A stretch of DNA of 58,975 nt from the IMG/VR virus record IMGVR_UViG_3300010282_000326. One strand, 5' to 3'. The position numbers were made by a program, and so were the translations under genes. This stretch comes from an uncultured virus (IMG/VR IMGVR_UViG_3300010282_000326) (lineage: Duplodnaviria > Heunggongvirae > Uroviricota > Caudoviricetes). Below are positions 1 to 58,975 of this stretch, one piece after another. Each line of letters starts with the position of its first letter. Position 1 is the first letter of the stretch. The notes beneath the pieces are model-generated. The model worked only from the letters and a program-made list of their open reading frames with translations. It made no database searches and had not been told where the DNA came from.

Positions 1-234
1 AGAACTGCCGAAAGTTTTGCAAGACATGGTAGAGATTTAGAATATGCTCATAATTATTCATTATCTGTGTACACAAGTACCCCAATCAAGAATAATTATA
101 CAGATGAAATTTTAGCTTGTGACCTTAATACTTTCTTAACAAAGCCAGAAAAGGCTGAAAAGATATTAAGTGAGGTTAGAGGCTTTAACGAAACAAAGGG
201 GTACAAGTCAGAAACAGGAGTTTATCAAAGATAA
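1..234 (+). CDS. partial CDS (3' end), hypothetical protein
   Basis: Frame 1 is open from the window start to TAA at 232-234, directly before the RBS of the next gene. Confidence 0.6.
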   Translation, partial: RTAESFARHGRDLEYAHNYSLSVYTSTPIKNNYTDEILACDLNTFLTKPEKAEKILSEVRGFNETKGYKSETGVYQR

Positions 235-245
235 GGGGGTAGTTT

Positions 246-983
246 ATGCGTAGTGTATCGTTTTGTTTACCGTGTTATAATGAGGCTAGTCGAGGTGATT
301 TTAATGCTCGATTAACTTTATTATATAATTATATAGTTGAAAATGTAGATGATTTTGAGTTGATTCTTATCAGTGATGGCAGTACTGATAATACAAAGGA
401 TATTATTCTACAATTTAGAAAGACTCATGAGAATGTTGTAGCTAAGATTTCAGAGAAAAATTTTGGTAAAAGCTATACTTTGAGAAAGGCTATTTCTTAT
501 GCAGAAAAGGAACTTTTCTTTTTCATGGATGCCGACCTTAGTACAGGTCTTAATTTTATTAAAGTATTTATAGAAAATTGTAAGCCAGATACTTGTGTTG
601 TAGGCGATAGATTTATGAATAATTCTGTAGTACAAAGAAGTGATATTTTCAGAAAAGGTTTGTCTTTTTTTAGTAGATTTATTATAAAGAAGTTTTTTAA
701 ACTTGATGTAAAAGATACACAATGTGGATTTAAATGCTTTAATACTGCTGATTTAAAGAAAATAAATCCTTACTTTGTAAGTAGTAAGTGGCTTTTAGAT
801 ATAGAGATGTTAATTTATCTAAATGAATTAGGGATAGAAATCATTGATTATCCTATTGTTTGGAATTCAGATTTGAAACCTACTTTTAATTCATTACATG
901 GTGCTTTAGTTTCAGGGTTAGAACTTTTAAGAATATTGGTGATAAAGAATGCAAAGATTAAAAGAATTAAAGAAGGAATTTAG
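246..983 (+). CDS. family 2 glycosyltransferase (polyprenol-phosphate glycosyltransferase, DPM/DPG synthase-like)
   Basis: LPCYNE, SDGSTD, NFGKS, MDAD (DxD) and DTQCGFK motifs. Confidence 0.9.
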   Translation: MRSVSFCLPCYNEASRGDFNARLTLLYNYIVENVDDFELILISDGSTDNTKDIILQFRKTHENVVAKISEKNFGKSYTLRKAISYAEKELFFFMDADLSTGLNFIKVFIENCKPDTCVVGDRFMNNSVVQRSDIFRKGLSFFSRFIIKKFFKLDVKDTQCGFKCFNTADLKKINPYFVSSKWLLDIEMLIYLNELGIEIIDYPIVWNSDLKPTFNSLHGALVSGLELLRILVIKNAKIKRIKEGI

Positions 984-2562
984 TGGTTGGGATATTATAT
1001 TTTGCTATTTAATATTAGCTATATTAGCCTTATATAAAATGGATGGTTACAATAAGTATCTCAGCAGTGATTTACAGTTCGTATTTAACAGGTTATCTCA
1101 GATGAGGTCTTGTATAGCAGACGGAAAATACCCTTTCTTTTACTATCACGATTTATTTGAAACGGGGTATGGTTCATCATTCTTTTATGGTCAGTTAACT
1201 TTATTTCCTTTTTTACCTATAATAAACTATAAAGTTTTTACTATGATATACATTGTTACTGCTTTAACAGTTACTTATGTTGGTTTAAAGACTTTATATA
1301 AAAGATTTGCTTCAAATTATAAAGAGTTAGCAATAATAACTGTAATGTCAAGTTTTGGGCTTCATCTTTATTTTGATTATAACACATTGGCTTGTAATAT
1401 TTTAGCTATCGGAATGAGTTTATTTTTTATTGCTTTTATTGTTGATTTCTTTCGAGATGGTAAGAGTTTTTGTAAAGCTGTTATAATGTTTGGGTTAATT
1501 ATATACTCACATTTAATAACAGCACTAATAAGTTTCATAATTTGTGTTGTGGTATTTATCTATTATTTTGATAAAACCAGATTAAAAGAGTATATTAAGT
1601 TTGCTATATGTTGTTGCATAGTTTCTGCTTATTTTATATGTAATTTTTTATATCATTCAGTCACATTAGACAGTACACGGTTATCAAAAATTAATGAATC
1701 GACTAGTAATATTGAGACATTTTATATGTCAAATTATCTTTTTGAAACTAAAGTAGTTGACTTTTATAGTGGTAATATAGCAAATCAAAACTATTCATTT
1801 ATGAGTTTGATTATGTTCATTACTCTTATAGTTTGCTTTATAAAATATAATAGAAAGTATTGGAAACATTTAATTTGTTGCTTTATTTTATTATTTACTT
1901 GTACAGATTTTGGTTGGAAGTTTATACATCAGTTTTTTACAACTAGGATACAGTTCCCAACAAGGTATGATTTATTTATAGTTGTATTATTTATTGGTAT
2001 TTGTTTGCGAAATGTAGATAAGAAGTGGTTATATGTCATATTATTTTTTACTTGCATACCTGAGTTATTGTTCTGTATATTCATGTATGGTAAAGGTGTT
2101 GTGTTAGCAGAGTATGATAGTCCAGAAAAGCAGTCTATCAGTTATAGTGTGGGCAATGGAGAATATCTTGCTTTAGATTTTAGTAGTGATTATTTACTTG
2201 AAAATAAAAATTTTGCTGTTGATGAGACTGGAAAGAAGTATGATATAAAACAAGATAAAGACCTATTAGAAATTAATGTTAATAATAAAGATGTAAAATT
2301 ACAGATACCAAGATTATATTATAAGGGTTATAAAGTTTGGGACAACTTAGGGGTGGCTTATAAGGTTACAAAAGGTAAATGTGGTTTTATCAATGTAGAT
2401 TTGGATGATAAACTTGTAGATAAACTTTATGTTCAATATCAGCATCCTTTATGGTTGATAATTATATTTGGTTTTGATATATTGTTTGCTTTTTGGTTAG
2501 TTTACAGTTGTTTTAAGTCAAGATTGGAGGTTTCTAATGAAGTTAGTGATAATAGCAGGTGA
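949..2562 (+). CDS. polytopic membrane protein, probable GT-C glycosyltransferase (YfhO/PTPS-related-like)
   Basis: Many hydrophobic helices; GYGSSFFYG, IQFPTR, GEYL and LQIPRLYYKGY motifs; overlaps the GT2 gene. Confidence 0.7.
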   Translation: MQRLKELKKEFSGWDIIFCYLILAILALYKMDGYNKYLSSDLQFVFNRLSQMRSCIADGKYPFFYYHDLFETGYGSSFFYGQLTLFPFLPIINYKVFTMIYIVTALTVTYVGLKTLYKRFASNYKELAIITVMSSFGLHLYFDYNTLACNILAIGMSLFFIAFIVDFFRDGKSFCKAVIMFGLIIYSHLITALISFIICVVVFIYYFDKTRLKEYIKFAICCCIVSAYFICNFLYHSVTLDSTRLSKINESTSNIETFYMSNYLFETKVVDFYSGNIANQNYSFMSLIMFITLIVCFIKYNRKYWKHLICCFILLFTCTDFGWKFIHQFFTTRIQFPTRYDLFIVVLFIGICLRNVDKKWLYVILFFTCIPELLFCIFMYGKGVVLAEYDSPEKQSISYSVGNGEYLALDFSSDYLLENKNFAVDETGKKYDIKQDKDLLEINVNNKDVKLQIPRLYYKGYKVWDNLGVAYKVTKGKCGFINVDLDDKLVDKLYVQYQHPLWLIIIFGFDILFAFWLVYSCFKSRLEVSNEVSDNSR

Positions 2563-5336: not shown

Positions 5337-5561
5337 ATGTTTATTAATGGAGCAGACATAAAAGTTGAAAAAGTTGGAATGAGTCTTGTATTCAGTGTAT
5401 TAAACGTTGGTGATATTATGCGTTTTAACATTGAAAAAGGAGATATAACTTATTTAGATAATTTTAATAAGTTAAGCTCAGGAAGATTCGAGCAGATTGA
5501 GGCTTTTTGTCTTGATTTTATGAATAAGTATGAAAAAGACAGTTCAATTTATAAGGGGTAG
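5337..5561 (+). CDS. hypothetical protein
   Basis: ATG at 5337 after TAAGGAG RBS, in frame with ORF 5289..5561. Confidence 0.6.
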   Translation: MFINGADIKVEKVGMSLVFSVLNVGDIMRFNIEKGDITYLDNFNKLSSGRFEQIEAFCLDFMNKYEKDSSIYKG

Positions 5562-8048: not shown

Positions 8049-9878
8049 ATGTTTAAGAAATTTATGGCTTGGCTTAATAAGCACAAAGTCGCTCTTTTTG
8101 TTTGGTGCTTTGTTTTAGTTGTGTTGTATGGAGGGATGAAATTACAGAATAAGAATGAAGAAGACAAAATAAAAACTGTTAGCTATGATGAATTTGTGAA
8201 GTTGGCAGAGGAGGGAAAAGTAGATTACATAACTTACAATGTTAATAGTGAATGGATGATATTTAGTTTATATAATGAGGATACAAAGGGTAAAACTCGT
8301 GATGAGTTGGAGGAATTAGATTATCAATATGAAAATAAAGATTTAAGAAAGACATTATATCCTGCCTATGAAGATTTTAGAAAGGATATGCTTTCTTTAG
8401 GTATAAGTATGGATGCTCAGAGAAGTTCTACTGTTATAGCAAATCTTATTTCCAGCTTGATAACACTCTGTTTACCTTTTTTAATTTTGGTTTTAATATT
8501 TAATGGTATGAGTAAAAAGATGGGAGGTCTTGAAAAAGATAGCTTAATACAAGAAAGTACAGTTAAGTTTTCTGATGTTATAGGTCAAGAGGAAATACTT
8601 GATGATATAAAGTTTGTAACAAATCTTATCAAAAACCCTAAATCTGGTAAAGAAGTTGGTGCTAAAGTACCAAAGGGAATATTGCTGTCAGGTGAGCCAG
8701 GCACTGGTAAGACTCTAATAGCGAAAGCAATAGCTGGAGAAGCAGGGGTACCATTTCTATATATGAATGCTTCAAGTTTTATAGAAATGTATGTAGGTGT
8801 TGGTGCAAAGCGTGTAAGAGAGCTTTTCAAAATAGCAAAGGAGAATACTCCTTGTGTAGTTTTTATTGATGAGATTGATGCAGTAGGAAATAAGCGAGAT
8901 TCAAGGGGTACTACTTCAGAAAATGACCAGACTATAAATGCTCTGCTTCAAGAGATGGATGGTTTCTCAGAAAGGTCGGGGGTATTTGTAATAGCAGCTA
9001 CTAATAGACCAGATAAACTTGATAAGGCACTTGTTAGAGCAGGAAGATTTGATAGGCAAATTGTAGTTGCACCACCTAAGGATTGGCGAGTTCGTATGGA
9101 ACTTTTTGCATTCTACTTAAAAGACCTTAAGGTATCTGATGATGTTGACTTAGAAACATTAAGTAAGCAGACAGTTGGTTTTACTGGTGCTGATATCGCA
9201 GCTATCTGTAATGAGGCAGGTATTATAGCTATGATGAAAGAGCAGGAGTTTGTTACAAATGCTTGTATAGAAGAAGCTATAGATAAGAAGATATTTAAAG
9301 GTAATCGTAGTAATGATGATTCTCACAAGAATGATAAGAAAATAGTTGCTTATCACGAAGCAGGTCACGCAGTTGTTACTTATCTTGTAAAACAACCTAT
9401 CGCAAGAGCCACAATTGTAGGTACTACAAGTGGAGTTGGCGGCTTTGTAATGCAGACAGAGTCAGATAGTTACTTTACAACTGATGTAGAGTTGAGAAAC
9501 CAAATAATGATTGCATTTGGGGGTAGAGCTTCTGAAGCTATAAAATTCAATGATATTATTACAACTGGTGCTAGTTCAGATATAACTCAAGCTACAAATA
9601 TTATGTTAAACTATATAGAAAAGTATGGTTTTGATAAAGATTTTGGTATGCTTGATATGAGTGTTCTTAAGGAGCAACAGTTAGTTAGTAGTGATGATAT
9701 TGTAAAGAGACTTTCAGCTATGTCGAGAGATATGTATAATCAAGTGTATTCATTATTAAAGGATGATTATAGTTTAGTTGAAGTATTAGCTCAGAAATTG
9801 CTTGAAGAAGAAACAATTTCGGGTACAGCTATAAAGGAACTCTTGGATAATGAGCGTAAAAAAGGATATTTAAAGTAG
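8049..9878 (+). CDS. ftsH: ATP-dependent zinc metalloprotease FtsH
   Basis: Two N-terminal TM helices, GEPGTGKT Walker A, FIDEID Walker B, ATNRPDKLDKALVRAGRFDR SRH, HEAGH zinc motif. Confidence 0.97.
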   Translation: MFKKFMAWLNKHKVALFVWCFVLVVLYGGMKLQNKNEEDKIKTVSYDEFVKLAEEGKVDYITYNVNSEWMIFSLYNEDTKGKTRDELEELDYQYENKDLRKTLYPAYEDFRKDMLSLGISMDAQRSSTVIANLISSLITLCLPFLILVLIFNGMSKKMGGLEKDSLIQESTVKFSDVIGQEEILDDIKFVTNLIKNPKSGKEVGAKVPKGILLSGEPGTGKTLIAKAIAGEAGVPFLYMNASSFIEMYVGVGAKRVRELFKIAKENTPCVVFIDEIDAVGNKRDSRGTTSENDQTINALLQEMDGFSERSGVFVIAATNRPDKLDKALVRAGRFDRQIVVAPPKDWRVRMELFAFYLKDLKVSDDVDLETLSKQTVGFTGADIAAICNEAGIIAMMKEQEFVTNACIEEAIDKKIFKGNRSNDDSHKNDKKIVAYHEAGHAVVTYLVKQPIARATIVGTTSGVGGFVMQTESDSYFTTDVELRNQIMIAFGGRASEAIKFNDIITTGASSDITQATNIMLNYIEKYGFDKDFGMLDMSVLKEQQLVSSDDIVKRLSAMSRDMYNQVYSLLKDDYSLVEVLAQKLLEEETISGTAIKELLDNERKKGYLK

Positions 9879-9890: not shown

Positions 9891-10855
9891 ATGGGAGCGA
9901 CTTTTCCAATAGCACTTGTTGTGTTAGTAGTTTGTTTAATTATTTTATTTAGTTTTGTACCTTTGGACTATGGATTTCATCCTTAGCTTCAGGTGTATAT
10001 GTTAGTATTTTTTATCTTATTGGTATGAGGCTTAGACGAGTTTCACCTCGTAAAATTATCGAGCCTTTAATTAAGATAAGAAAAGCAGGTATAAAAATAC
10101 CTATTAATGATTTGGAAACACACTATCTTGCTGGAGGAAATGTTGATAATGTTGTAGATGCTCTTATTGCAGCATCGAGAGCAAATATTCCATTAACTTT
10201 TGATTTAGCAGCAGCTATCGACCTTGCAGGTAGAGATGTTTTAGATGCAGTTAAAACATCTGTTAATCCTAAAGTTATATCAACTGATAATATCAGTGCA
10301 GTAGCTAAAGATGGTATTGAAGTGCTTGTAAAAGCAAGAGTTACAGTTAGAACAAATCTTCAAAGACTTGTTGGTGGTGCAGGAGAAGCTACAATTCTTG
10401 CAAGAGTTGGAGAAGGTATTGTAACAACAGTTGGTTCTTCAGAAGAGCATGGGGTAGTTCTTGAAAATCCAGATAGTATTTCAAAGTCAATTATTGAAAA
10501 GGGTTTGGATTCAGGTACATCTTATGAGATTCTTTCTATTGATATAGCTGATATTGATATTGGTCGAAATATTGGAGCACATCTTAAGACATTACAAGCT
10601 GAAGCTGATAAGAACATAGCTCAGGCTAAAGCTGAAGAGCGTAAATCTATTGCTATTGCTCAAGAGCAAGAGAATAAGGCAGCAGTTGTTCTTGCTGAAG
10701 CTGAAGTACCAAAGGCTATGGCTGAAGCATTTAGAAGTGGTAATTTAGGTATTATGGATTATTATAAAATGCAGAATATAAAAGCTGATACTGAAATGAG
10801 AAGTGCTATAGCAACACCAATTGCTAAGCCAGTTACAAAGCCAATTAAGGAGTAA
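9891..10855 (+). CDS. floA: flotillin-like protein FloA (YqfA), interrupted by a 1-nt frameshift near 9963
   Basis: [47 protein letters not shown]; the N-terminal TM (ATG 9891, AGGAGG RBS) is in a different frame from the rest. Confidence 0.9.
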
Positions 10856-13092: not shown

Positions 13093-14160
13093 ATGGAACA
13101 GGCTCAAAATTTAGATGCTTTACTTAAAGAGGCTGTTGATATGCATGGTTCAGATTTACATTTAAGTGTAGGTGCAAAGCCAAGAACAAGAGTACATGGT
13201 TTATTAAAAGATATGCCTTATAAAGTAATAACACCAGATAATGCTGAAAAGTTGATTATGCCTTTATTGGATACTTTAGCAAGAACAGAGTTAAACTCTA
13301 CTGGTCAGTATGACTTAGCTTATTCAGTTCCAGGTCTTGCTCGTTTCCGTGTAAATATTTTTCATCAGAAAGGTGATTTAGCAGGGGTATTTCGTGTACT
13401 TAATGAGACAGTACCAGATTATACAACACTTGGTTTACCTCTTTCAGTTTTTAATCTATATAAGAAAAGAAGAGGTCTTATACTTATAGTTGGACCGACT
13501 GGTTCAGGTAAATCTACCACTCTTGCAAGTTTCTTACATATCATAAATGAGAATTTATATAAGCATATCATAACATTGGAAGACCCTATCGAGTATATAC
13601 ATTGGCATAAGCGAAGTCTTATAAATCAGAGGGAGATTGGTACAGACTGTGATTCTTTTGCAAATGGGTTGCGAGCAGCACTTCGTGAAGACCCAGATGT
13701 TATACTTGTTGGAGAGATGCGTGATACTGAGACAGCGGAAATTGCATTAACCTCAGCAGAAACTGGTCACCTTGTTTGTTCAACACTTCATACTCTTGGA
13801 GCAGCAGATACAGTAAACCGTATTATAGATATGTTCCCAGAAAAGAAGCAAGGTATAGCACGAAGTATGTTAACTGGGGTACTTGAGGCTGTTGTTTCAC
13901 AACAGTTGTTGCCTAGAAAAGATGGTAGTGGCTATGTTGTAGCTTATGAGGCTATGTTTGTAAATAAATATATTAAAGAGTTAATAAAGAATAAAGAGCA
14001 AGATGCTATATCTGATTATTTAAACGAGTCAGAAGCTAAGGAAATGGGTATGGTATCTATGGATTCAACAATATTGAATCTTTATAAAAAGGGCTTGATA
14101 GAAAGAGATACTGCTTTAGATTATTCATTTGATAGGAGAAGTTTATCAAAAATAATTTAG
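13093..14160 (+). CDS. pilT: type IV pilus retraction-type ATPase PilT
   Basis: GSDLHL, RFRVNIF, GPTGSGKSTT, TLEDPIE, NQREIG, LREDPDVILVGEMRD, AETGHLVCSTLHT. Confidence 0.95.
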   Translation: MEQAQNLDALLKEAVDMHGSDLHLSVGAKPRTRVHGLLKDMPYKVITPDNAEKLIMPLLDTLARTELNSTGQYDLAYSVPGLARFRVNIFHQKGDLAGVFRVLNETVPDYTTLGLPLSVFNLYKKRRGLILIVGPTGSGKSTTLASFLHIINENLYKHIITLEDPIEYIHWHKRSLINQREIGTDCDSFANGLRAALREDPDVILVGEMRDTETAEIALTSAETGHLVCSTLHTLGAADTVNRIIDMFPEKKQGIARSMLTGVLEAVVSQQLLPRKDGSGYVVAYEAMFVNKYIKELIKNKEQDAISDYLNESEAKEMGMVSMDSTILNLYKKGLIERDTALDYSFDRRSLSKII

Positions 14161-39204: not shown

Positions 39205-40758
39205 ATGAAAAAGTATTTAGTTTTAATATTATTAGCAACGACATTATTATGGGGTAGTGTTGATGTGTATGCTGATGATAAAAATAAAACTACTGAAGCA
39301 ACAACAGAGGATTCAAGTAGTGATACAAGTAGTGATACAAAGAAATCTTCTTCAGGTAATAATGGTAGTCCAAAAGATAATCCTTTTTGTAATTCAGGTG
39401 CACCAGTAGCATATAAGGAATTTAAATATTATGATTTTGCAGTTCCTTATAAGAAGACAATAAAGGAAATAGGTGGTTATGCTACAAGTGCAGAAACAAC
39501 AGGGTTGTACAGTTTTCATGGCTCTGATAACGATTGGGGTAATACTCAGCATGGTCTTTTGAATATCTTTAATACCACTACAGGTGACTTAAGTTCAAAT
39601 GTTTTTGATAGTAGTGGTTATGATGATAATTTAGGTGGTTTAATGTATGTAGAAAAGGATGGAGTTAGGTTTTATTGTGGTGCATTAGGACAAGGTTTAT
39701 ATGCAAATTCAGCTTTAGGTTGGTCTTTAAGTAATACAGGTTTGAGTTATGGTGGAGATTATGATAAATTAATGGGCAGTTATTATCCTTGTCAGGCAGG
39801 TCTATTATTCGATGTTATACTTAAAGATGGTACTCAATATCATTTTTGTGAGCAGTCAGCTATGGGTATTGGTCATTCCATAGGTGGAGAAAATGCTGGT
39901 CAGGATGGTATAAATTATAATAAGGCTAAATTAAATTATCAACAATATAAATGTTGTTGGCATACAGATAATCCTTGGCAATTAGTTGAGGTATCTGCTA
40001 AATCAGGCTCATCAACAGCAGGAATAGCTAAAGCAATGGGTATATCAGATGAAAATCCAGTTATGTATATAAGAGTTTGGGTTGCGAGTTTATATATGAT
40101 AGGTAATAGTGGAAAAAAGGCTTCAACATTTGCAAGCGATAAAGATGGTGTGTCTAAAGGTACAGAATTGTCAGAGGGTAGTCCAGATGATTCTTCTTCA
40201 GACCCAGTTGATGGAGCAGCTGAGGGTACTACTAGTGCACAATATTTAGCAAATGGTTATTGGAGTGAGGAACAACTTGCTGTAGTTACTAAGATAAATG
40301 AAGATTTTATAAATTTAACTGCATCAAGAAATGATTTTACAAGTAAGGAACTTGGAGCATTATCTGATTGGGAACAGAATGTTCACAAGATGAATGAAAA
40401 AGATTCAATATTCTATTATGTCAGAATTATAACAATGATTATAGGTATTATATTTACTGTTTGGATGTTGCTAATTTATATAGCATACTGGTTTGATAGG
40501 CTTAATAATATAATTGATATAGATTTACTTCCAATATTAACATTTCATAGATTGCGTTTAAGTGATACAGAAGAGACTTGTACTTTCCGAGCTTCAGACT
40601 TGGCTAAGACTGATACTCGTACTGTCAATCATAGAGCGATATTAGGTATATGTATTGTTGGTGTTGCTTTTGGAGCATTAGTAATTAGTGGCACATTATA
40701 TGTAGCAATTATGACATTAGTTCAAAAAGTATTCAATTTACTTGGAATAGGTGGTTAA
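39205..40758 (+). CDS. exported paralog 4: unassigned central domain + conserved C-terminal membrane anchor
   Basis: Signal peptide; DGVRFYCGALG...GLLFDVILKDGT segment (possibly a 3D/double-psi-barrel-like wall enzyme); shared C-terminus. Confidence 0.65.
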   Translation: MKKYLVLILLATTLLWGSVDVYADDKNKTTEATTEDSSSDTSSDTKKSSSGNNGSPKDNPFCNSGAPVAYKEFKYYDFAVPYKKTIKEIGGYATSAETTGLYSFHGSDNDWGNTQHGLLNIFNTTTGDLSSNVFDSSGYDDNLGGLMYVEKDGVRFYCGALGQGLYANSALGWSLSNTGLSYGGDYDKLMGSYYPCQAGLLFDVILKDGTQYHFCEQSAMGIGHSIGGENAGQDGINYNKAKLNYQQYKCCWHTDNPWQLVEVSAKSGSSTAGIAKAMGISDENPVMYIRVWVASLYMIGNSGKKASTFASDKDGVSKGTELSEGSPDDSSSDPVDGAAEGTTSAQYLANGYWSEEQLAVVTKINEDFINLTASRNDFTSKELGALSDWEQNVHKMNEKDSIFYYVRIITMIIGIIFTVWMLLIYIAYWFDRLNNIIDIDLLPILTFHRLRLSDTEETCTFRASDLAKTDTRTVNHRAILGICIVGVAFGALVISGTLYVAIMTLVQKVFNLLGIGG

Positions 40759-43700
40759 GATGAATTATATTAATTTAGTAGCATTATTAAAAGCTATGCA
40801 TCAAATAAAAAATGTTGAAGTCTATGGTAGAATTATTAGCAGGTTAAAAAGACCTGCTAATATTATGGAAAGTGTCCAAGTAGATGAAACAAAGGGTATG
40901 TTTGTTAAAGTTGATGTATTTGCAGTTAGATTATCAGGCATACAAAAATATCTGAAGGATTGTGGCTATTACGCAAAGAATGATATTTATATGGTTAATG
41001 GTCAACTTATCACATATATAGAAGCAAATAAGTATGTTTTACCTGATTGGTACTATATGAGGGGTACTTTAGCTTCTTCTCAGGTGCAACCAGACTATAT
41101 TTCTTTGTTCAAATGGGGTAAGACTGGGGCTGGTTGGAGCATCAGTTTTACAGAACTTGGTGATTTCGTATTTCAAGAGTTTGAGCATGATAATGATATG
41201 AATTCATATATTCATAAGTCATTTCAGGAGAATATTGTTGTAAGACCAGATTATGTTAATAATCTTCAGAAGTTCTATGCAGTAGACCCACGCACATTAA
41301 ACAATCAACCAGTTGTAGAAAATAAGTCTTTAAATGCTCAAATTCAGCAAAGTTTAAATAATGTTCAAATAACTACAACTGTATCGAATTCGAGTTTTGT
41401 GCAGGAAAGTAGACAAGATATAAAAGATTATTCAACATTGGCAACAAAACTTAAAGATGACCTTAAAAAGGCTAAGTCCTCTAGAACTTCATTCATTCAA
41501 AATCTTATTTCAAAGTATGAAATTGAAGATGAAATTACTGACTATATAATGTACACCATTGATGGTGTAAGGTCATTTTTGAAATCAAAGCCAGTTAAAG
41601 ATGCATCAACAGGACGAATGCTTCTAAAGGGGTACTTAAATAATTTTGGTAAAGATATGGATGCTGAGTATTTAGGTACAACAGTTAAATCGTTCTTAAT
41701 TGATGATTTTGATGAAGTTGCTGATTTTATGGTATCGGGAGATAGGGTTAATTGTCATAAAGAAGCTTGGGCTATGTGTAAGAAAGCTTTTGGTAATCCA
41801 GAGTTGTTTTATGCAGGTATTTTAGGTCAAGTAGTTGGTGTTAGTTTTGATAAACTTGAACCAGTAGTTAATTTATGTAGTGATTATGAATTATCTTTCA
41901 GTAAGATTGTAAATGAAAATCCTTATTTACTTCAAGTGTTAAGTACTTTAGATTATTCAGCTATAGAACATATTGCTTTGTGTGTAGGTAAGGCAAATGA
42001 CCGTAGTATAGATAAGGAAAGAAATATAGCTGTTTTACATTCTTATATTTTAAATACAAGGGGTAATACGGTATTTAAGATTTCAGATTTATATAAAAAG
42101 CCTATAGGTGTTGCATTAAGTAAGGCTAAATATGAGTCTTGTAGAGATAGGGGTACTTATTTATCGAACAATACTTTGGCTAATTTGAAATATTTTATTC
42201 GAGAAGACGAATCTGAAGTCGGATATAATTTATCTGGTGGTTGGCAGTACTTTAATTATCAGTATTGCTTGCGATTAACTCCAAGAGAGTTAAATGATGC
42301 TATTAAAGATTATACAAATTCAGGTATAGGTGTGACATTTGATAATTATATAACTTCTTCCAGCTACTTAGATAAAGAATTATATGTTTATGAACATCTT
42401 TACGAGATGGGAAATGTTAAAATAGATTATGATGTAAATGAAATAGAAAGGTATATTGCTGAGTATGAAGCACAAGTAGGCTTTAAGTTGGAGGAAAATC
42501 AGCGTAAAGCTGTACATCTCTGTACAAGGGGTAGTGCTATTATAGCAGGTAGTGCAGGAAGTGGTAAAACTACTGTTTCAAATTGTATAGTTTATGTATT
42601 AGATAAGTTAGAGAGAGGACATGCAACTTTTAAGTTTGCGACTCCAACTGGTAAGGCAGCTAAGAGATTACAAGAAGTTGTTAAAAAACCAGTTAAGACT
42701 ATGAATAGCTTATTCAAAATATTTGGTACTGAATCAAGTATTCTTGATGAGGATAAAGGTGATGCTTCTGATGAAGGTATATTTTATTTCTTTGATGAAG
42801 GGGCTATGGTAACAATAGACTTATTATACTCGGTATTAAAGAGAATAAGTACAAATAACAGAATATTTTTCTTTGGTGACTTTCATCAATTACCACCTAT
42901 AGGTAAGGGTTTGCCTTTTAGAAATCTTTTAAGGTTTATGCCTTGTGTTTTCTTAACAGTATCTAAAAGGGCTGAGGAAGGTTCAAATATTACAAGAAAT
43001 TCTAATTATATCAATGAGAATAGTGATATGAATTGGAAGAATCTTGTGAGTGAAGGAGATTTTATTCTTTGTCCTTGTAGTGATGATATGGTAAAAGATA
43101 TAACTGTAGGTCTATGTAAGCATTATCTTGGTCAGAATACTATAAATGAAGACCAAAACTTAATGAAATTGATGAATGTTACTTCTTTACCAGATATACC
43201 TAATTTAAAGCCGAGTGATATTCAAGTAGTTAGTCCATTAGCAAAAGCATCTTATGATTGGGGTACTATAAGATTAAACACACTATTACAGCCTATATTT
43301 AATAGTAATCGAGGTGTAAAGAACACATTTTTCTATCAGCCAAGTAAAGATTCATATATAAAATTTTTAATTGGAGATAGAGTAATACATTCTGAGTCTA
43401 ATATGTATAGTATGCAATGGTATGAATCTTATACTGGAGGTCAATTTGTAAAGACTTTTGGTTTTGGTATTTGTAATGGAGATGTTGGAAAATTGGTTGC
43501 AGTTTATCCATCAAGTCAGTGTATTTTTATGGAAGAACAGACATTACCACCAGCAGATTTTGAATATCCTCAGACTATGCGTGATGATTCAACATATTCA
43601 GGTGAAAATCTATATTTTCTTGTTGTTGAATATTTTGATTATATCACGAATAAGAATTATTATATACTATATAGATGTAGGCTTTCTGATTATAGTAATG

Positions 43701-43996
43701 ATTATGGATTAGCTTTAACTGGTGAGGATTTCTCTAAATTAAACTTATTCTATGCAGGTACAACTCATAAACTTCAAGGTAGTCAAGCAAAGCTGATAAT
43801 TTCTGTTTTAAAGAAAGTTAACTATCAACATTTTATAACACGAAATATGATGTACACTGTTTTTACTAGGGCAGAAAAGCAAGTATTTGCTATAGGTTCT
43901 GTTTCTAATGATAGAAACTCTATGTTATCTATCGCAAGAAGAGATGTAGCTGAGGAAGATGTGCTTACAATAGGAGAATTATTATATAAAGTGTAA
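40751..43996 (+). CDS. RecD2-like superfamily 1B DNA helicase with long N-terminal region
   Basis: GSAGSGKTT, TPTGKAAKRL, DEGAMV, GDFHQLPPIG, NGDVG, TTHKLQGSQ, YTVFTRA; ENPY motif. Confidence 0.92.
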   Translation: MVKMNYINLVALLKAMHQIKNVEVYGRIISRLKRPANIMESVQVDETKGMFVKVDVFAVRLSGIQKYLKDCGYYAKNDIYMVNGQLITYIEANKYVLPDWYYMRGTLASSQVQPDYISLFKWGKTGAGWSISFTELGDFVFQEFEHDNDMNSYIHKSFQENIVVRPDYVNNLQKFYAVDPRTLNNQPVVENKSLNAQIQQSLNNVQITTTVSNSSFVQESRQDIKDYSTLATKLKDDLKKAKSSRTSFIQNLISKYEIEDEITDYIMYTIDGVRSFLKSKPVKDASTGRMLLKGYLNNFGKDMDAEYLGTTVKSFLIDDFDEVADFMVSGDRVNCHKEAWAMCKKAFGNPELFYAGILGQVVGVSFDKLEPVVNLCSDYELSFSKIVNENPYLLQVLSTLDYSAIEHIALCVGKANDRSIDKERNIAVLHSYILNTRGNTVFKISDLYKKPIGVALSKAKYESCRDRGTYLSNNTLANLKYFIREDESEVGYNLSGGWQYFNYQYCLRLTPRELNDAIKDYTNSGIGVTFDNYITSSSYLDKELYVYEHLYEMGNVKIDYDVNEIERYIAEYEAQVGFKLEENQRKAVHLCTRGSAIIAGSAGSGKTTVSNCIVYVLDKLERGHATFKFATPTGKAAKRLQEVVKKPVKTMNSLFKIFGTESSILDEDKGDASDEGIFYFFDEGAMVTIDLLYSVLKRISTNNRIFFFGDFHQLPPIGKGLPFRNLLRFMPCVFLTVSKRAEEGSNITRNSNYINENSDMNWKNLVSEGDFILCPCSDDMVKDITVGLCKHYLGQNTINEDQNLMKLMNVTSLPDIPNLKPSDIQVVSPLAKASYDWGTIRLNTLLQPIFNSNRGVKNTFFYQPSKDSYIKFLIGDRVIHSESNMYSMQWYESYTGGQFVKTFGFGICNGDVGKLVAVYPSSQCIFMEEQTLPPADFEYPQTMRDDSTYSGENLYFLVVEYFDYITNKNYYILYRCRLSDYSNDYGLALTGEDFSKLNLFYAGTTHKLQGSQAKLIISVLKKVNYQHFITRNMMYTVFTRAEKQVFAIGSVSNDRNSMLSIARRDVAEEDVLTIGELLYKV

Positions 43997-44050
43997 TTTC
44001 TGAATATTATGGATAGCAGTAAAATATCATTATAGAAAGGAGTATTAAAA

Positions 44051-44344
44051 TTGAATATCTACGATATTTCTTGTACTTTTGAGGAATATCATCACATCGA
44101 TGGGGTTTGGCAGAAGACTGACGAAAGCTGTACAAAGACCAGCAGTTCGGTTATAGCCAATATGCTTGAATGTAGTCGATATTTTACTAGTTTAGGGGGT
44201 CAGATGAAGACTTACTTTGTTAGAAATCGAAGGTTTGGCGAAGTTTGTAGCAAGATTATGAGTATATCAATATGTGGGACAGTTTGTAGGATTTACTCTT
44301 TCAGTTATAATAATGCAAGAAGAGCAGTAGAGGGCAATCTGTAA
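44051..44344 (+). CDS. hypothetical protein
   Basis: AAAGGAG RBS before a TTG start. Confidence 0.6.
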   Translation: MNIYDISCTFEEYHHIDGVWQKTDESCTKTSSSVIANMLECSRYFTSLGGQMKTYFVRNRRFGEVCSKIMSISICGTVCRIYSFSYNNARRAVEGNL

Positions 44345-44383
44345 AAGGTTGCCCTTAATATATGTAAAGGAGAAAGCAATTAA

Positions 44384-44578
44384 ATGAATGGACAACTTGA
44401 TTTAATTGCTAGTGATGAAGATTTCGATATTTTTATGCAGAAAGCAGAAGAAACTTTGTTAGTTATGAATAGTGATGTAAAGGATGAGTTAAAAGTAAAG
44501 AGGGAAGATAAGCACGAAAAATTGTCTTTGAAATCAATATTTAAGCCTACTGGTACAGGTGGTTGGCACAGCGTTTAA
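44384..44578 (+). CDS. small hypothetical protein
   Basis: AAAGGAG RBS. Confidence 0.55.
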   Translation: MNGQLDLIASDEDFDIFMQKAEETLLVMNSDVKDELKVKREDKHEKLSLKSIFKPTGTGGWHSV

Positions 44579-48821: not shown

Positions 48822-49736
48822 ATGAATAAGTTTATCAAACGATTTGTTGTTGGTAATGTTATACTTTGTTTTATAGTATTATGGAATTTAGCTATATATA
48901 AGCATTCAGTAGATAAGTTTGAGAAAAATTTAGATGAAACTAAAACAGCTTTTGAGGATGTCACAGCAACTACTACTGAACAAGCAACATTACCAGAAAT
49001 TCAGACTGAAAGTACAACAGAAGAGCTTGAACCTTTAGGTAAAGTGAGAGAAGCTCACGCAGTTGTGAATAAGGAAGTTTTAACTGAAGCAACTACTGAG
49101 CAAGTAGAAACAACAGAAGTTTCTACTGAGGAGAAAAGAGTTACAAATTGTTTTCCAAGAGTAGATACAAATAATGATGATACATTTTCGTATACAGAAG
49201 ATGGAGAAAATATTATAGCAACAATAAATGGGGTAGACTATACTTTTTATAAAGCTATCTTATATAATAATATTAATTTTCCATCGATAGGTTCTCAGTT
49301 TGCAAAAATAACTATACCGAGTATAGGAATATATAGTACGGATATTATAGTTGGTGCTACTCAAGATTTAGTTGATACTTTTGATATTTGTATGAGTACA
49401 AGAGATAGTTATTTTGGAGATAAAAGACCTGCTTTACTTTGTGGACATAATAATCGAAGTTTTGAGAAATTATTTAATCTTAAACTTGGCTCTTATATTT
49501 TCATTGAAACTGATTATGGTGGTTTTGTTTATAAAGTAACAAATATTGAGTATGGTACTATAAATGATGAATACACTGAAATTTATGATAAAAATGGAAA
49601 AAGTCTTTTAGTTGAAAATACAGAGTATGATAATCAGATACTTCAGATGTACACTTGCTATGGAGAAACTAATGGTACAAAGGAAAGATTAGTAGTTACA
49701 GCAGAGCAAGTAGTGGGTACGGAGGTATATAAATGA
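48822..49736 (+). CDS. sortase (class D-like)
   Basis: N-terminal TM, TTE stalk, ITIPSIGI, LCGHN, YKVT, MYTCY, RLVV (His-Cys-Arg triad). Confidence 0.85.
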   Translation: MNKFIKRFVVGNVILCFIVLWNLAIYKHSVDKFEKNLDETKTAFEDVTATTTEQATLPEIQTESTTEELEPLGKVREAHAVVNKEVLTEATTEQVETTEVSTEEKRVTNCFPRVDTNNDDTFSYTEDGENIIATINGVDYTFYKAILYNNINFPSIGSQFAKITIPSIGIYSTDIIVGATQDLVDTFDICMSTRDSYFGDKRPALLCGHNNRSFEKLFNLKLGSYIFIETDYGGFVYKVTNIEYGTINDEYTEIYDKNGKSLLVENTEYDNQILQMYTCYGETNGTKERLVVTAEQVVGTEVYK

Positions 49737-52464: not shown

Positions 52465-53637
52465 ATGAGTGATGTAGAGAAGAATCCATTTCCTAAATTA
52501 GTTAGTTGGGAAGTATGGAATTTTATGTCTATTGAACACGCATTATGCGAGTTTGATGAAAGAAACATAATCAATCTAAAGGGGTACAATGACTCAGGTA
52601 AGTCTGCTATGCTTTCAGCATTAAAGGTTTTACTTACCAATTCAAATCCGAATAAGCAGACAGACTTTATTCAGGATGATAAAGAATATTTTAGAGTTCT
52701 TGCTACTTTTGAGGATAAGGTTCAGATACTTAGGGATAAGTATATAAATGGACAAAGTTTATATGAGATGTATAAAAATGGGGAACTGATATACTCTACA
52801 AAGTCAGGTAATTCTCTTTCAAGAGTATCAGAAGTACCTCAGCCTATCGCAGATTATCTTGGACTTATTAGTTATGAAAAGACTTTCCTTAATGCAAGAA
52901 GTTGTTTCGAGAAGCAAATAGGTGTACAGACAACTGGTAGTGAAAACTATAAGATGTTTAATACAGTGTTAAAGTCAGAAGAAATTTCTACTGCATCTAC
53001 TTTGCTTAATAACGATAAAAATAAGTTAGCAAGTGATATAAATGCTATAGATGCAGAGATAAATGCTAATAAGACTTTAATTGGTCAGGGACAGTTCTTA
53101 TCTGCTGAATTGATTGATTATCTTAAAGAGCATGATGGTCTTATAGATGATTGTGAAAGCAGAGAGAATGTATTTAATCAAATCAATTCATTTTCTACGA
53201 GTATTGATAATGTAGTTATTACACCAGAGTTATCTGTTATAGACACAGATGATTTACAGCAGTTGTATGCTATAAATGCTCTTAAGGAAAGTCTTAGGGG
53301 TATCGTTATTACTCCAGAAGTATCTGTTGTAGATGCAGGTCAGTTAAGTGCTATTCAGACTATAAAGTCTTTATTAGATTCTTGTGACTTAAATATAGCA
53401 CCAGAAGTTAGTATAGTTGATGAAGAACAGTTAAAGATTTTATCAGCTATTCAGAATATAGTATCTTCTCTTTTTGAGTGTGATGCTATTATAAATGAGG
53501 ATGACGCTAGACTTAGTGAATTAAATTCTCAGTTAGAAGCTTTAGAAAAGGAGGCAGCAACACTTGGTGCTAAGATGATTAAGTGTCCACATTGTGGAAA
53601 TTTATTTGACCCAGAGACGGCAGGACATCAGCACTAA
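52465..53637 (+). CDS. SbcC/Rad50-like ATPase, N-terminal half only, ending in a CPHC zinc-hook motif
   Basis: WNFMSI, LKGYNDSGKSAMLSAL Walker A, FIQDD, FEKQ (Q-loop-like), coiled coil, terminal CPHCG; no signature or Walker B. Confidence 0.8.
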   Translation: MSDVEKNPFPKLVSWEVWNFMSIEHALCEFDERNIINLKGYNDSGKSAMLSALKVLLTNSNPNKQTDFIQDDKEYFRVLATFEDKVQILRDKYINGQSLYEMYKNGELIYSTKSGNSLSRVSEVPQPIADYLGLISYEKTFLNARSCFEKQIGVQTTGSENYKMFNTVLKSEEISTASTLLNNDKNKLASDINAIDAEINANKTLIGQGQFLSAELIDYLKEHDGLIDDCESRENVFNQINSFSTSIDNVVITPELSVIDTDDLQQLYAINALKESLRGIVITPEVSVVDAGQLSAIQTIKSLLDSCDLNIAPEVSIVDEEQLKILSAIQNIVSSLFECDAIINEDDARLSELNSQLEALEKEAATLGAKMIKCPHCGNLFDPETAGHQH

Positions 53638-55734: not shown

Positions 55735-56796
55735 ATGAATATTGTTTGGAAAGGAGATATTGCAAGCGTGTACAATAAGGTTGTAGGTGGCAAGGTAATG
55801 ATTGTAGGCGACTTACATTTCAGTGATGTTTTCACTGGTAAGCACAAGAATTATCTTGAGAATTGTTTTTGGGTTCTTGGTAAGATGTCAAAAAAGATAA
55901 AAGAAGAGAAGCCGAGTGCAATAGTTCTTGGTGGTGACCTTATAGGTTGGTCTGAGACTAATGTCAAGGATAGACAAGTGCTTTCGATGTTGTGTAAAGT
56001 ATTACAAAGTTGGAATGATGTATGTCCAGTCTATTCTGTAAGGGGAAATCACGATGTTAAGGGGTATCCAGATTTTCTGTTTTTATCAGAACTTGGTTTG
56101 ATTATAACTTCTGCTGAATGTGGTGGTTATTTCGATTATTATGGTTATGAAGGTCAGGAAACTCCAGAAGTTAGATTCCATATTGTTGATTATGGTGATG
56201 AAGATAGGGCTTTAGATATACTACAAGCTGAGGGAAGTAGTAATATCGTTTTAGGTCATAATAATTATACTATTCAGGGTATAACCACTTGGTATGCAGA
56301 CCATGATGGTAAGGAGTTGAGTATGATGCAAAACTTTGGAGATGTTGATATGGTTATTAGTGGTCATATACATAATCCAAGTCCAGAGATTTATTCAACT
56401 CAGATGCCTAGTGGTAAAGATTGTATGCTCTTTTATACTGGTTGTCCTACTCGACCTATAAAGGAGAAAAATCTATATGAGAGTTGTTGGTATGTATTTG
56501 TAGAGTATAATAAGTCTACAAATAGTACAGATATAAATACTGATGAGTTTAAACTTTTACCTATCAAAGAAGTGTTTTATGATGACGATAGTTTTGTAGA
56601 AGATAAGTCTGAGGAAGAACTTCAGGAAGAGGTAAGAAAAGAAAAGCTTACAGAGGTGTTAAGTGATTTGCTTAAGTATAGAATTAGTTCTGGAGACCCT
56701 ATACAGCAAATTCAGAATATACCTAATGCAAGTCCAGAAGCAAAGGCTATAGCTTCTCAGTATTTAACTATCGCAATGAACCAAGTAACAAGTTAG
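55735..56796 (+). CDS. Mre11/SbcD-like metallophosphoesterase nuclease
   Basis: GDLH, GGDL, GNHD, GHN and SGHIH motifs; true start may be GTG at 55768 after AAGGAG. Confidence 0.88.
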   Translation: MNIVWKGDIASVYNKVVGGKVMIVGDLHFSDVFTGKHKNYLENCFWVLGKMSKKIKEEKPSAIVLGGDLIGWSETNVKDRQVLSMLCKVLQSWNDVCPVYSVRGNHDVKGYPDFLFLSELGLIITSAECGGYFDYYGYEGQETPEVRFHIVDYGDEDRALDILQAEGSSNIVLGHNNYTIQGITTWYADHDGKELSMMQNFGDVDMVISGHIHNPSPEIYSTQMPSGKDCMLFYTGCPTRPIKEKNLYESCWYVFVEYNKSTNSTDINTDEFKLLPIKEVFYDDDSFVEDKSEEELQEEVRKEKLTEVLSDLLKYRISSGDPIQQIQNIPNASPEAKAIASQYLTIAMNQVTS

Positions 56797-56814
56797 AATT
56801 AGGAGGTTAAGGAA

Positions 56815-57006: not shown

Positions 57007-57744
57007 ATGAGCGGTATTGAAGAAATTACTAAGCGTATTTCAGTAGCTAATGCTGAAAGTAAGAGACTCAACAATGAAAGACAGGTTAATATTGGTAAGA
57101 AAGAGACTTTAACACAGCAGTTGAATGAAGCTATCAAGAAGTACAATGAGATTTATGGTACTTCTATTACAGTTGATACTGTTGATAAAGAGGTTGAGAG
57201 AGTTTCTGCTATCAAGGAGAAAGAGGTAAGTGTTGTTGAGAATATACTTACTCTCATTCAGAATGGTCAGTATGAAGAAGCAAAGAAAGCAGCAGGGGTA
57301 GTTGAAGCCCCTAAAGAAGAAGAGAATAAACAGGTTGAGGCTGTTACAGCACCGACTCCAGTAGTTGAAACACTTGCTCAGCCAGAACCAGTCAAAGAAG
57401 TTGAAACTGTTAAGGTAGAGGAGCCTAAACAGGTTGGGGCTGTTACAGCACCAGCAGCAGAAGCAGTTGTAACACCTCCAGTAGCTCCATCACCTACTGC
57501 AACTACAAATAAAGCAACTTTAGGTGTACCATCTATGGTTGAGGGAGAAGCTTCAACAGAAGCAAGTCTTAAAAAGCCTAATCTTAGTGGTATTGATGCT
57601 CTTGATGGATTTACACAGGGTACAGGTGCTGTTGCACCACCTCCAGTTGTAGCTCCTCAGCCAGAAAAAGTTGATAATGGAGATGTAGTTGCACCACCTC
57701 CGAGTTTTGATTCTATATTAAATGGAACAGCATTCAAGCTTTAA
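57007..57744 (+). CDS. coiled-coil protein with Pro/Ala/Val-rich disordered tail
   Basis: Heptad-like N-terminus; repeated KQVxAVTAP and VAPPP motifs. Confidence 0.7.
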   Translation: MSGIEEITKRISVANAESKRLNNERQVNIGKKETLTQQLNEAIKKYNEIYGTSITVDTVDKEVERVSAIKEKEVSVVENILTLIQNGQYEEAKKAAGVVEAPKEEENKQVEAVTAPTPVVETLAQPEPVKEVETVKVEEPKQVGAVTAPAAEAVVTPPVAPSPTATTNKATLGVPSMVEGEASTEASLKKPNLSGIDALDGFTQGTGAVAPPPVVAPQPEKVDNGDVVAPPPSFDSILNGTAFKL

Positions 57745-57760
57745 GAGGGGGTAGTTAGTT

Positions 57761-58975
57761 ATGAGAATTTCTTGTAATGATTATGATAAATTAATGGCTA
57801 TACTTACAGATGCTTCTTTTGTTATTGAAGACCCAATGACAAAGGAAGAGGCAAGAAATATTGTCTTTAAGTTAGAAAAGGGTGATTCTGTAACTGGTCA
57901 TGTTATTGGATATAATAATATTGTGACTTTTAAACAGGTTTTATCTAAAGAGTTCTTTGATATAACCTTAGAAGACTCTGATAATGATATTGTACTTTTC
58001 CAGATAAAAAGTAAGGTACTTTTAGGATTCTTAAACACTTATAAAAATTTAAGAAGAACTTATGTTAATGAAGTGATTTTTGAGTTTACTCCTACTGGGG
58101 CACTTAAGTGTACAGTTATTGAGAAAGATAAGGCTGATGAGGATTCTATGTTTGAAGATGATACTGTTAAAGAGTATGTATCACAGAAAGTATTTAAGCT
58201 TCGACCAGTAGCAAATAATCAGCTTGAGCAGATAAATATGACAGCACCAAGTGCAGAGTTAATTACAATTCCTTGTTTAAATCTTCTTTTCCATATTAAG
58301 AATTTGGCAGGATTACTTCAGCAGGGTACTAATATCTATAGTATGCTTCAGTTTGATAATGATTATGTTGTTGTAGTTAATCCATCTTTCACAGTAACTA
58401 TGCAGAATAATGTTCAAGATGGTGATATCTTCAAAGGCATTTCTATTTATTATAAGGGTATTAGTTTCCTTAATAGACTTTGTTTACCTTTAGATTCTAT
58501 TGAGGTTTCTAAAGACCAGAATCATGTCTATATTAAGACAGAAAATACAGAGTCATTCATAAGATACAGCACTCAGATTAGTAATTATAATATGTTCTTA
58601 GAGGCTTTCAAGCATAATGAGAATGGTCTTGCATTTGATAAGCTGTATTTCAAGGATGTTATAAGACGACTTAGTCTTGAAGATGAAACAGTAGAATTTG
58701 GGGTAGATGTTGAGAATAATATGCTTACTCTTTCAAATAGCAGTTTCAATCAGGAGATGCCTGCTATAAAGATGAAGAATATGGAAGTATTTAGTACAAC
58801 CAAGTTTAAGATTATGCCAGACATCTTTAATCAGGTGCTGATTGGTGATGAATCTTTTGATGATACAACTTTTATATATTATTACAAGAGTGATAATAGT
58901 AAGTTGGTGTTCTTTACTGATGCTACAAGAGATTGGTTTGCAGTAGCAAGAGTAAATATGTATGAAGTAAAATAG
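57761..58975 (+). CDS. putative DNA sliding clamp (DnaN/beta-like)
   Basis: About 400 aa with a three-fold repeated helix + beta-strand pattern (e.g. AFDKLYFKDVIRRL...LTLSNS); replication context. Confidence 0.5.
   Translation: MRISCNDYDKLMAILTDASFVIEDPMTKEEARNIVFKLEKGDSVTGHVIGYNNIVTFKQVLSKEFFDITLEDSDNDIVLFQIKSKVLLGFLNTYKNLRRTYVNEVIFEFTPTGALKCTVIEKDKADEDSMFEDDTVKEYVSQKVFKLRPVANNQLEQINMTAPSAELITIPCLNLLFHIKNLAGLLQQGTNIYSMLQFDNDYVVVVNPSFTVTMQNNVQDGDIFKGISIYYKGISFLNRLCLPLDSIEVSKDQNHVYIKTENTESFIRYSTQISNYNMFLEAFKHNENGLAFDKLYFKDVIRRLSLEDETVEFGVDVENNMLTLSNSSFNQEMPAIKMKNMEVFSTTKFKIMPDIFNQVLIGDESFDDTTFIYYYKSDNSKLVFFTDATRDWFAVARVNMYEVK

Follow-up and report, generated by a model that had tools for sequence, protein, structure and literature searches.

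What reads a hexanucleotide that recurs at almost regular intervals along one strand of a replicon and is practically missing from the other? This question is raised by the 58,975-nt stretch of DNA analysed here at its full length (hereafter, the window), an uncultured virus record of IMG/VR (IMGVR_UViG_3300010282_000326) that carries the word GGGGTA 79 times on its + strand and once on its - strand. Sequence comparison places the window in a family of giant one-directional elements related to plasmid pXO16 of Bacillus thuringiensis, which have a collinear backbone, carry their genes on one strand and extend over hundreds of kilobases. We tentatively propose that the GGGGTA words are initiation sites for the element's own DnaG-type primase on the strand that is copied discontinuously. 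The reader, the primer and the direction of replication are deduced in this proposal, which we hold to be a serious possibility, if somewhat short of a probable one.

The initial annotation of the window had put the number of + strand copies, counted by hand, at about 75-80; the exact count is 79, and all 12 coordinates given there as examples are among these sites. The window contains 20,255 A, 19,948 T, 12,158 G and 6,614 C, and Markov models of order 0, 1, 2 and 3 predict 12.4, 9.4, 10.9 and 22.5 copies of GGGGTA, respectively. The over-representation that had been claimed is thus confirmed, with 79 copies observed against 9-12 under orders 0-2, and GGGGTA is the strongest outlier among all hexamers of the window by both order-1 and order-3 z-scores. 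An order-4 model, which already holds the counts of GGGGT and GGGTA, predicts 57.9 copies. On the + strand, TA follows 79 of the 119 GGGG words; where the run is exactly four G long, it follows in 70 of 91 cases. The word is preceded by C at only 1 of the 79 sites and followed by A at 5 of 79; in pXO16 its extended form is W-GGGG-TA-K, and no information is found farther out.

The reverse complement, TACCCC, had been noticed a single time, near position 78, and one copy is indeed all that the + strand contains, at 78; that is, the two orientations are not similarly frequent. This scarcity is mostly compositional, because C is rare in the window (6,614 against 12,158 G). The strand polarity that had been described is therefore real as an enrichment on one strand, but avoidance on the other strand is not demonstrable from 1 copy against 0.7-1.1 expected. 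Summed over 12 elements with the four-G (G4) type of word, the other strand has 10 copies against 14-23 expected.

To place the sites relative to genes, we used our own calls of open reading frames (ORFs) on the + strand. Seventy-three of the 79 sites lie inside ORFs, with 38 in frame 0, 20 in frame 1 and 15 in frame 2, and the remaining 6 are non-coding. Shuffling synonymous codons within each gene, so that proteins and codon usage are kept, yields 19.5 +/- 2.9 copies, with a maximum of 29 in 300 shuffles, and the same shuffle with codons pooled across genes yields 16.8 +/- 2.8. Gly-Val dipeptides are encoded as GGG-GTA in 38 of 95 cases, against 3.4 expected. The enrichment thus survives the codon-preserving shuffle that had been set beforehand as a check (79 copies against 17-20), and the earlier statement that codon usage does not explain a word found in three frames and between genes is borne out. 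This points to selection on the word at the level of DNA.

The word is also a trait of the element family. The family A DNA polymerase (PolA) encoded in the window was located on a contig of 272,762 nt and has hundreds of relatives, on contigs of up to 410 kb. Its nearest named relative, with 38.7% identity over 96% of the query, is that of pXO16 (pBTHD789-1), a 349,599-bp conjugative plasmid of B. thuringiensis sv. israelensis. Matches in pXO16, in the same order, are found for 13 of the 72 window ORFs, and the other 59 have none. As described in the available text of PMC6199540, all coding sequences (CDS) of pXO16 have one orientation, and the plasmid, possibly phage-like, is transferred as single-stranded DNA through a distant relative of the type IV secretion systems. 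The coding strand of pXO16 contains GGGGTA 658 times and the other strand 5 times, with 13-26 sites in each of 35 ten-kb bins (variance 4.7 at a mean of 18.6 over the 34 full bins). GC skew is positive in all 35 bins, and the orientation of the word is constant round the circle. Synonymous shuffling of pXO16 gives 274 +/- 9 copies against the 658 observed, under a null that keeps 152 non-coding sites fixed. In C1, a 95-kb contig of a Lachnospiraceae metagenome-assembled genome (MAG) from rabbit gut, G001, there are 215 copies on one strand and none on the other, at 9-14 per 5 kb throughout, and 62 +/- 6 after synonymous shuffling. In both pXO16 and C1 the word is carried in all three frames and in non-coding DNA.

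Across the related loci the form of the word varies around a fixed core. When the hexamers of related loci of 8 kb or more are ranked, a word of the G(n)TA type comes first in 40 of 41 loci; the exception is L068. The G4 type is that of the window, pXO16, C1 and about ten loci. Two loci, L066 and L067, have five G only, and in L067 GGGGGTA occurs 38 times against 1.4 expected, with G4-TA at background. Many loci have three G with a 3' extension, GGGTAT(T/C), and in L078 the word is GGTATT. The core common to all variants (GGGGTA, GGGGGTA, GGGTAT(C/T) and GGTATT) is GGTA, and over the family the word is found once per 0.2-0.75 kb.

The word is kept where pXO16 has no recognisable genes. Adjoining the primase gene, 4.4 kb of the pXO16 record (40,087-44,525; L122) contain no ORF of more than 79 aa on either strand, and in this stretch there are 8 GGGGTA at normal spacing and 0 reverse copies. 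A search of the stretch against Rfam gave no match; an origin region, a long non-coding RNA and a decayed gene are all conceivable. It also contains 11-nt tandem repeats, TTGGTAAGTTA x3.5, at 40137-40174.

The spacing of the word is regular. Gaps between sites in the window have a mean of 750 nt and a coefficient of variation of 0.58, and gaps of less than 100 nt and of more than three times the mean are both depleted. Gaps are under-dispersed in pXO16 and C1 as well, and in each of the three sequences 0 of 5000 random placements were equally even; the largest gaps are 2301 nt in the window, 2071 nt in pXO16 and 1559 nt in C1. The number of sites per kb does not change with the length class of a gene, and within genes the sites have an even distribution; the relevant unit is thus DNA length rather than the gene. 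Between the window and 8 relatives, only 7-29% of sites share an alignment column (Jaccard 0.07-0.29). That is, density is conserved while individual site positions turn over.

Outside the family, the word is at background. The first 50 kb of pBTHD789-2, a plasmid of the same strain as pXO16 whose genes also lie on one strand, contain 7 copies where 7-8 would be expected; in five further contigs of MAG G001 there are 0-2 GGGGTA per 10 kb; and none of 55 viral contigs with a distant PolA and similar GC content and skew is enriched in GGGGTA. Because the word is absent from a co-resident plasmid, from the other MAG contigs and from unrelated PolA contigs, the reader is expected to be encoded by the element or tied to the element's own way of life, and host codon-pair bias, host Chi and host primase preferences are unlikely causes. 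The same word is found in elements from a Bacillus isolate and in elements from gut metagenomes. Two of the unrelated viral contigs have enriched hexamers of their own: TGGAAC in L003 (26 copies against 2.7 expected, 2 reverse copies) and GCGGTG in L035 (29 against 2.3 expected, 4 reverse copies). C1 differs from its MAG in composition, with a GC content of 0.43-0.49 per 5-kb bin against 0.54-0.58 in the other G001 contigs, and is therefore probably mis-binned or extrachromosomal; a PolA search of 401 genomes of G001's family gave a match only in G001 itself. Read in gene orientation, C1 also contains GGAGG 255 times and its complement CCTCC 0 times (about 16 expected).

What, then, might read the word? 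The window encodes a DnaG-type primase catalytic core. Its best solved relative is 2AU3, 'DNA primase' (8.7e-11), it is 42% identical to the collinear Toprim protein of pXO16, and a Toprim/DnaG core was found in 24 of the 54 related loci searched. In all variants of the word, G-T-A is preserved on the 3' side of the G-run, and this form matches the triplets used by primases, although the agreement is one of form only. In the accessible parts of PMC2978363, primases are described as initiating at the central base of a triplet, DnaG of Firmicutes as using d(CTA)/d(TTA), and a His33 mutant of T7 primase as changed from d(GTC) to d(GTA)/d(GTG); in the same source, the specificity of bacterial DnaG resides in the zinc-binding domain, and this domain can serve the catalytic core in trans. 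The sites of T7 primase are given as 5'-(G/T)2GTC-3' in the abstract of PMC12839067.

The geometry of the word also fits. A primer started on 5'-GGGGTA-3' would be elongated toward lower + coordinates, which implies a fork that travels in the direction of the genes and of the G>C skew. Of 56 window ORFs with 100 aa or more, 54 lie on the + strand, the two - strand exceptions being short, and the G>C skew of the + strand is 0.295. The orientation of the word thus agrees with two independent fork markers, gene direction and skew, an agreement that could have failed and that fits a fork travelling in the deduced direction. Likewise, regular spacing and conserved density fit the need for a start site within every 1.5-2.3 kb. 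A priming signal had already been suggested in the initial annotation; geometry, primase gene, form of the word and privacy to the element are in keeping with that suggestion, whereas the direction of replication is only deduced, and T7 primase sites show neither comparable enrichment nor comparable polarity.

The mechanism that we envisage is as follows. The primase would read the single-stranded + strand in the 3'->5' direction; the final A of the word would be the uncopied, 'cryptic' base, and synthesis would start opposite T, giving the product pppA-C-C-C-C. The family A polymerase would then extend this primer toward lower + coordinates. The + strand would thereby be the discontinuously copied one, as the lagging template of a fork moving with the genes, as a strand displaced in a rolling circle or transferred in conjugation, or as both. 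As pXO16 keeps one direction round its circle and passes on one strand only, the sites could be used in vegetative growth, for synthesis of the lagging strand, or in the recipient, to make the transferred strand double-stranded, or in both settings. The primase itself could be split, with the catalytic core encoded in the window and a separate CHC2-type reader acting in trans; among the genes annotated in pXO16 are one for a stand-alone CHC2 zinc-finger protein and one for a DnaB-like helicase. In sum, the word may represent a private 'priming code', with start sites for a split primase every few hundred bases, supplied largely through synonymous codon choice, and with the number of G (3, 4 or 5) co-evolving with the reader; we would give this idea appreciable credence, though not the greater part of it.

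Several observations weigh against a primase as the reader. The translation of the window primase contains no Cys/His zinc motif and no zinc-binding domain, and a tblastn search with the pXO16 CHC2 and DnaB proteins found no homologue in the 59-kb window, C1 or the related loci. Homologues of both may lie elsewhere on the window's 272-kb contig; in G001, zinc-finger and DnaB searches gave matches only on contigs other than C1, and a homologue search with the CHC2 protein of pXO16 returned 9 close proteins only, of which the 3 with source names are all from Bacillus. In phage T7, GGGTC is present 39 times on the + strand and 55 times on the - strand, with 28-33 expected, so that these primase sites are barely enriched and non-polar, and a genome-wide enrichment of primase sites would therefore be without an established precedent. 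Chi and KOPS motifs lie on the same strand in their own systems as GGGGTA does here. A close relative of the window element, L068, whose primase is 68% identical, has only a weak excess of GGGTA (46 copies against 20); in this 153-kb metagenome contig, GGGGTA occurs 7 times against 3.9 expected, and the top hexamers are CCTACA and ACCTAC. Lastly, gene direction, skew and word never dissociate in any sequence examined, genes being one-directional round PolA in all 38 related loci of at least 12 kb, and replication-linked and transcription-linked readings are therefore not told apart. The one opposite-strand gene, in locus L092, was considered as a test of gene direction versus fork direction and proved uninformative, since the word is on neither of its strands. 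This gene (2-2704, - strand), at the contig end and of higher GC content, encodes a pullulanase with a YSIRK signal peptide and probably represents cargo of foreign origin, flanking chromosomal DNA or a chimeric join.

The same polarity would be expected of a private Chi-like or motor-orienting signal, read by a helicase, nuclease or DNA pump of the element and marking 'self' or setting direction, an explanation that we consider unlikely but not far-fetched. Strict polarity and over-representation on the G-rich strand are known for Chi and KOPS, and the polar over-representation on leading-strand sequence that characterises Chi is found here (79/1 in the window, 658/5 in pXO16, 215/0 in C1), although it fits a primase equally. 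Potential readers are present, namely the RecD-like helicase and the SbcC/SbcD-like genes of the window and an FtsK/SpoIIIE-domain protein annotated in pXO16; privacy to the element fits a private reader, and the word varies between lineages, as Chi does between bacteria. Yet nothing in pXO16 matches the RecD-like helicase at E<=1e-5, in contrast to the conserved primase, and with one copy per 0.2-0.75 kb the word is regular and many times denser than E. coli Chi and KOPS, for which we know of no regular spacing. Nor is there clear counter-selection of the reverse orientation (the 10 copies against 14-23 expected are small numbers). KOPS and SRS converge on the terminus (dif), whereas in pXO16 a single orientation is kept in 35 of 35 bins, with no strand switch round the circle. 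The host's own Chi is a poor candidate, since Chi is shared with the host's other replicons and GGGGTA is not (7 against 7-8 expected in pBTHD789-2; 0-2 per 10 kb in the other G001 contigs), and AGCGG, which we take to be the Chi of B. subtilis, is not enriched on the coding strand of pXO16 (83 copies against 76-91 expected); on the other strand of pXO16, AGCGG is about twofold enriched (51 against 21-25). Of the Chi-like role listed in the initial annotation, the host version is thus improbable, and a version private to the element, or a translocase signal, might still apply. The word is also on the sense strand wherever we looked, as it would be if it were read on the exposed non-template strand during transcription, or as GGGGUA in the mRNA, be it as a signal for pausing or anti-termination in very long operons of one direction, as a site for an RNA-binding protein or RNase, or as a weak ribosome contact; this we think distinctly unlikely. 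Its core GGTAG is similar to a portion of the ops element, which RfaH reads on the non-template strand, but ops-type signals occur once per operon and not every 0.5 kb. Some sites are in a Shine-Dalgarno position, 4-7 nt ahead of a start codon in the window, so that GGGGU can act as a ribosome-binding sequence; Shine-Dalgarno sequences proper, however, lie about 4-10 nt upstream of start codons, and only a small part of the sites is in such a position (window, 6 of 79; pXO16, 88 of 658; C1, 15 of 215), most sites being far from starts. In the upstream regions inspected, the usual ribosome-binding sequence of window genes is GGAGG/AGGAG, and the variants GGTATT and GGGTATC are unlike such a sequence. 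Moreover, sites scale with length and not with gene number, are even along genes, and are kept in the ORF-free 4.4-kb stretch of pXO16, though this stretch may be transcribed; and the host machinery of transcription and translation is common to pBTHD789-2, which is without the word.

Less plausible still is another strand-specific transaction, such as nicks of the kind found in phage T5 or an asymmetric base modification by an enzyme of the element, which we judge very unlikely. The word is asymmetric and short, and its information is confined to 8 positions; in these respects it is like the recognition sites of nicking enzymes and asymmetric methyltransferases. Candidate enzymes include the NERD protein of the window and the HNH, GIY-YIG and non-specific endonuclease genes annotated in pXO16. 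However, it is not obvious what benefit would come from enriching a cleavage or modification site at a regular 0.5-kb spacing. The orphan methyltransferase whose target the word had been suggested to be did not materialise: Pfam scans found no methyltransferase family in 66 window ORFs (49 at E<=0.001 and 17 at E<=0.01), six short ORFs and the rest of the element lying outside the scan. That the word should be a functionless by-product of mutation or repair bias, or of a codon-pair preference, we find scarcely credible. Half of the coding sites are indeed GGG-GTA (Gly-Val) codon pairs, but the word is carried in three frames and in non-coding DNA, it is regularly spaced, its density is kept while its positions turn over, the length of its G-run is lineage-specific (five G only in L066 and L067), and a replicon in the same host is without it.

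The coordinates of the array and of the genes that bear on its interpretation are collected in Table 1. Other window genes recognised with Pfam and PHROG include HD proteins, a NERD protein and several genes typical of cells and unusual in plasmids or phages, namely those for an FtsH-like AAA protease, a FloA flotillin-like protein, a type II/IV secretion ATPase and a sortase (8049-9878, 10025-10855, 13093-14160 and 48822-49736); the same scans of the window found no phage structural families. A nucleotide search of phage records with the PolA gene gave no match. A single-protein pattern scan of viral contigs for PolA also gave none, the relatives having no close match in IMG/VR, and an alignment-based scan of viral contigs returned only distant PolA proteins of 21-30% identity, which later served as negative controls. 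The window sequence is found in 18 public sequencing runs from 11 studies, of ruminant-gut or gut metagenome origin where labelled; all 18 are in the form of assembled contigs, and none is an RNA run. Several PolA homologues are 1300-1518 aa long (P0006, P0007, P0036, P0062, P0069, P0118 and P0120), and most of these have LAGLIDADG and/or intein-splicing Pfam domains (PF14528, PF14890); the polymerase gene therefore appears to host inteins in some relatives.

Table 1. Positions of the GGGGTA word and of selected genes in the window
Feature	Coordinates	Strand	Remarks
GGGGTA array	198..58705	+	79 sites; extended form D-GGGG-TA-B
GGGGTA starts, part 1	198, 236, 1164, 3465, 4072, 5555, 6519, 7278, 7498, 8745, 8905, 8979, 9520, 10451, 11684, 12090, 12874, 13384, 13876, 15269	+	
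GGGGTA starts, part 2	15971, 16421, 17104, 17199, 18106, 18394, 19344, 19929, 21047, 21546, 22051, 22829, 23365, 25068, 25989, 27029, 27885, 28316, 28716, 29232	+	
GGGGTA starts, part 3	30081, 30898, 31512, 32166, 32943, 33554, 34943, 36487, 37198, 37247, 37643, 38269, 39251, 39536, 41061, 41115, 41629, 42060, 42150, 42528	+	
GGGGTA starts, part 4	43260, 44798, 45565, 45803, 47113, 48447, 49230, 49907, 51085, 52287, 52581, 53297, 54162, 54698, 55288, 56061, 57295, 57748, 58700	+	
Sole reverse copy of the word	78..83	-	TACCCC on +; 0.7-1.1 expected from composition
Word in Shine-Dalgarno position (example)	236..241	+	4-7 nt before start codon; others start at 5555, 22051, 25068, 27029, 57748
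Family A DNA polymerase, 1137 aa	27042..30455	+	Pfam DNA_pol_A 1.3e-67; marker linking the window to its relatives and pXO16
DnaG-type primase catalytic core, 267 aa	44631..45434	+	Pfam Toprim_2 3.2e-9, DNAG_N 4.5e-5; PHROG DNA primase 6.2e-18
RecD-like SF1 helicase, 1081 aa	40751..43996	+	Pfam AAA_19, AAA_30, UvrD_C_2, SH3_13; PHROG 'exonuclease V' 6e-66
SbcC-like ATPase	52465..53637	+	PHROG SbcC-like 1.3e-10; pXO16 homologue 29% identity, E 2.8e-52, collinear
SbcD-like metallophosphoesterase	55735..56796	+	Pfam Metallophos 4.1e-16; pXO16 homologue 36% identity, E 4.6e-52, collinear

A literature search for the GGGGTA word found no report, and neither did one for genome-wide enriched primase sites; the 2015 sequence paper on pXO16 (Makart et al., Plasmid 80:8) may bear on the former. 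Reviews of pXO16, including PMC6199540 as far as its text is available, describe the common orientation of the CDS, the transfer of single-stranded DNA and the possible phage-like nature, and the word is not mentioned there. Whatever its function, a G(n)TA word that is confined to one strand, enriched at least 5 times and evenly spread can be used to recognise, orient and bin such elements in metagenomes, and to flag foreign insertions, such as the motif-free pullulanase gene of L092, and mis-binning, as of C1 in a Lachnospiraceae MAG. The word gives a lead to the way in which DNA is copied or transferred in a large, hardly characterised class of giant elements, and pXO16 provides a culturable system for a direct test of the idea. 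If priming is indeed its role, the spacing of sites would be a sequence read-out of the maximal length of Okazaki fragments, and a displaced or transferred single strand could be converted to duplex in any host, with no need for the primosome signals of that host. To our knowledge, this would then be the first replicon in which the specificity of a primase visibly reshapes codon usage.

How does the word compare with signals in known systems? Chi, read by RecBCD or AddAB, and KOPS/SRS, read by FtsK or SpoIIIE, are likewise polar, over-represented oligomers on G-rich leading-strand sequence; they are, however, features of the host genome that are common to its replicons, and far sparser, whereas the element word is absent from a co-resident plasmid, one-directional round pXO16 and regularly spaced. 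The sso/ssi signals of plasmids, together with the primases of conjugative plasmids, offer a different likeness, in that orientation-specific signals on a displaced or transferred strand start complementary synthesis. Such signals are single, long and folded, in contrast to an element word of 6-8 nt that is unstructured and repeated hundreds of times.

Closer in form are the triplets of bacterial DnaG (d(CTA)/d(TTA) in Firmicutes and d(CTG) in E. coli, as listed in the accessible parts of PMC2978363), which have a central T and, in Firmicutes, a 3' A; the window primase core is also closest to a solved bacterial DnaG, 2AU3. These triplets are frequent by chance and are noted in that source, within the same limits, only as Leu codons abundant on the lagging template, whereas the element word specifies four or more extra bases, and synonymous codon choice is bent replicon-wide to supply them. 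With the gp4 sites of T7 the word shares a short G-rich sequence ending in G-T-N and, in the proposed mechanism, would share an uncopied last base and a primer A placed opposite T (PMC12839067 and PMC2978363, in the passages available). Both replicons, moreover, have a family A polymerase, a DnaG-type primase core and genes on one strand. The T7 sites, however, are a degenerate set, non-polar and barely enriched, whereas the element word is stringent over 6-8 positions, enriched 6-8 times, confined to one strand and even, and its last base is A and not C; in addition, the window primase is without the fused zinc domain and helicase of the T7 protein.

Among giant elements, the Inocles of oral Streptococcus resemble the window by description: they are about 350 kb long and have a RecD-like helicase, a sortase and many cell-wall genes, and the window too has a RecD-like helicase and a sortase. 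They differ in having two replichores and DNA polymerase III, and no polar word is mentioned in the part of PMC12340149 from which this description is taken. pXO16 differs from the window in its host, which is a Bacillus as opposed to the ruminant-gut runs in which the window is found, and in the 59 of 72 window ORFs that it does not match; it has in common with the window the same word, 658 copies against 5, a PolA homologue, collinear ORFs and genes on one strand.

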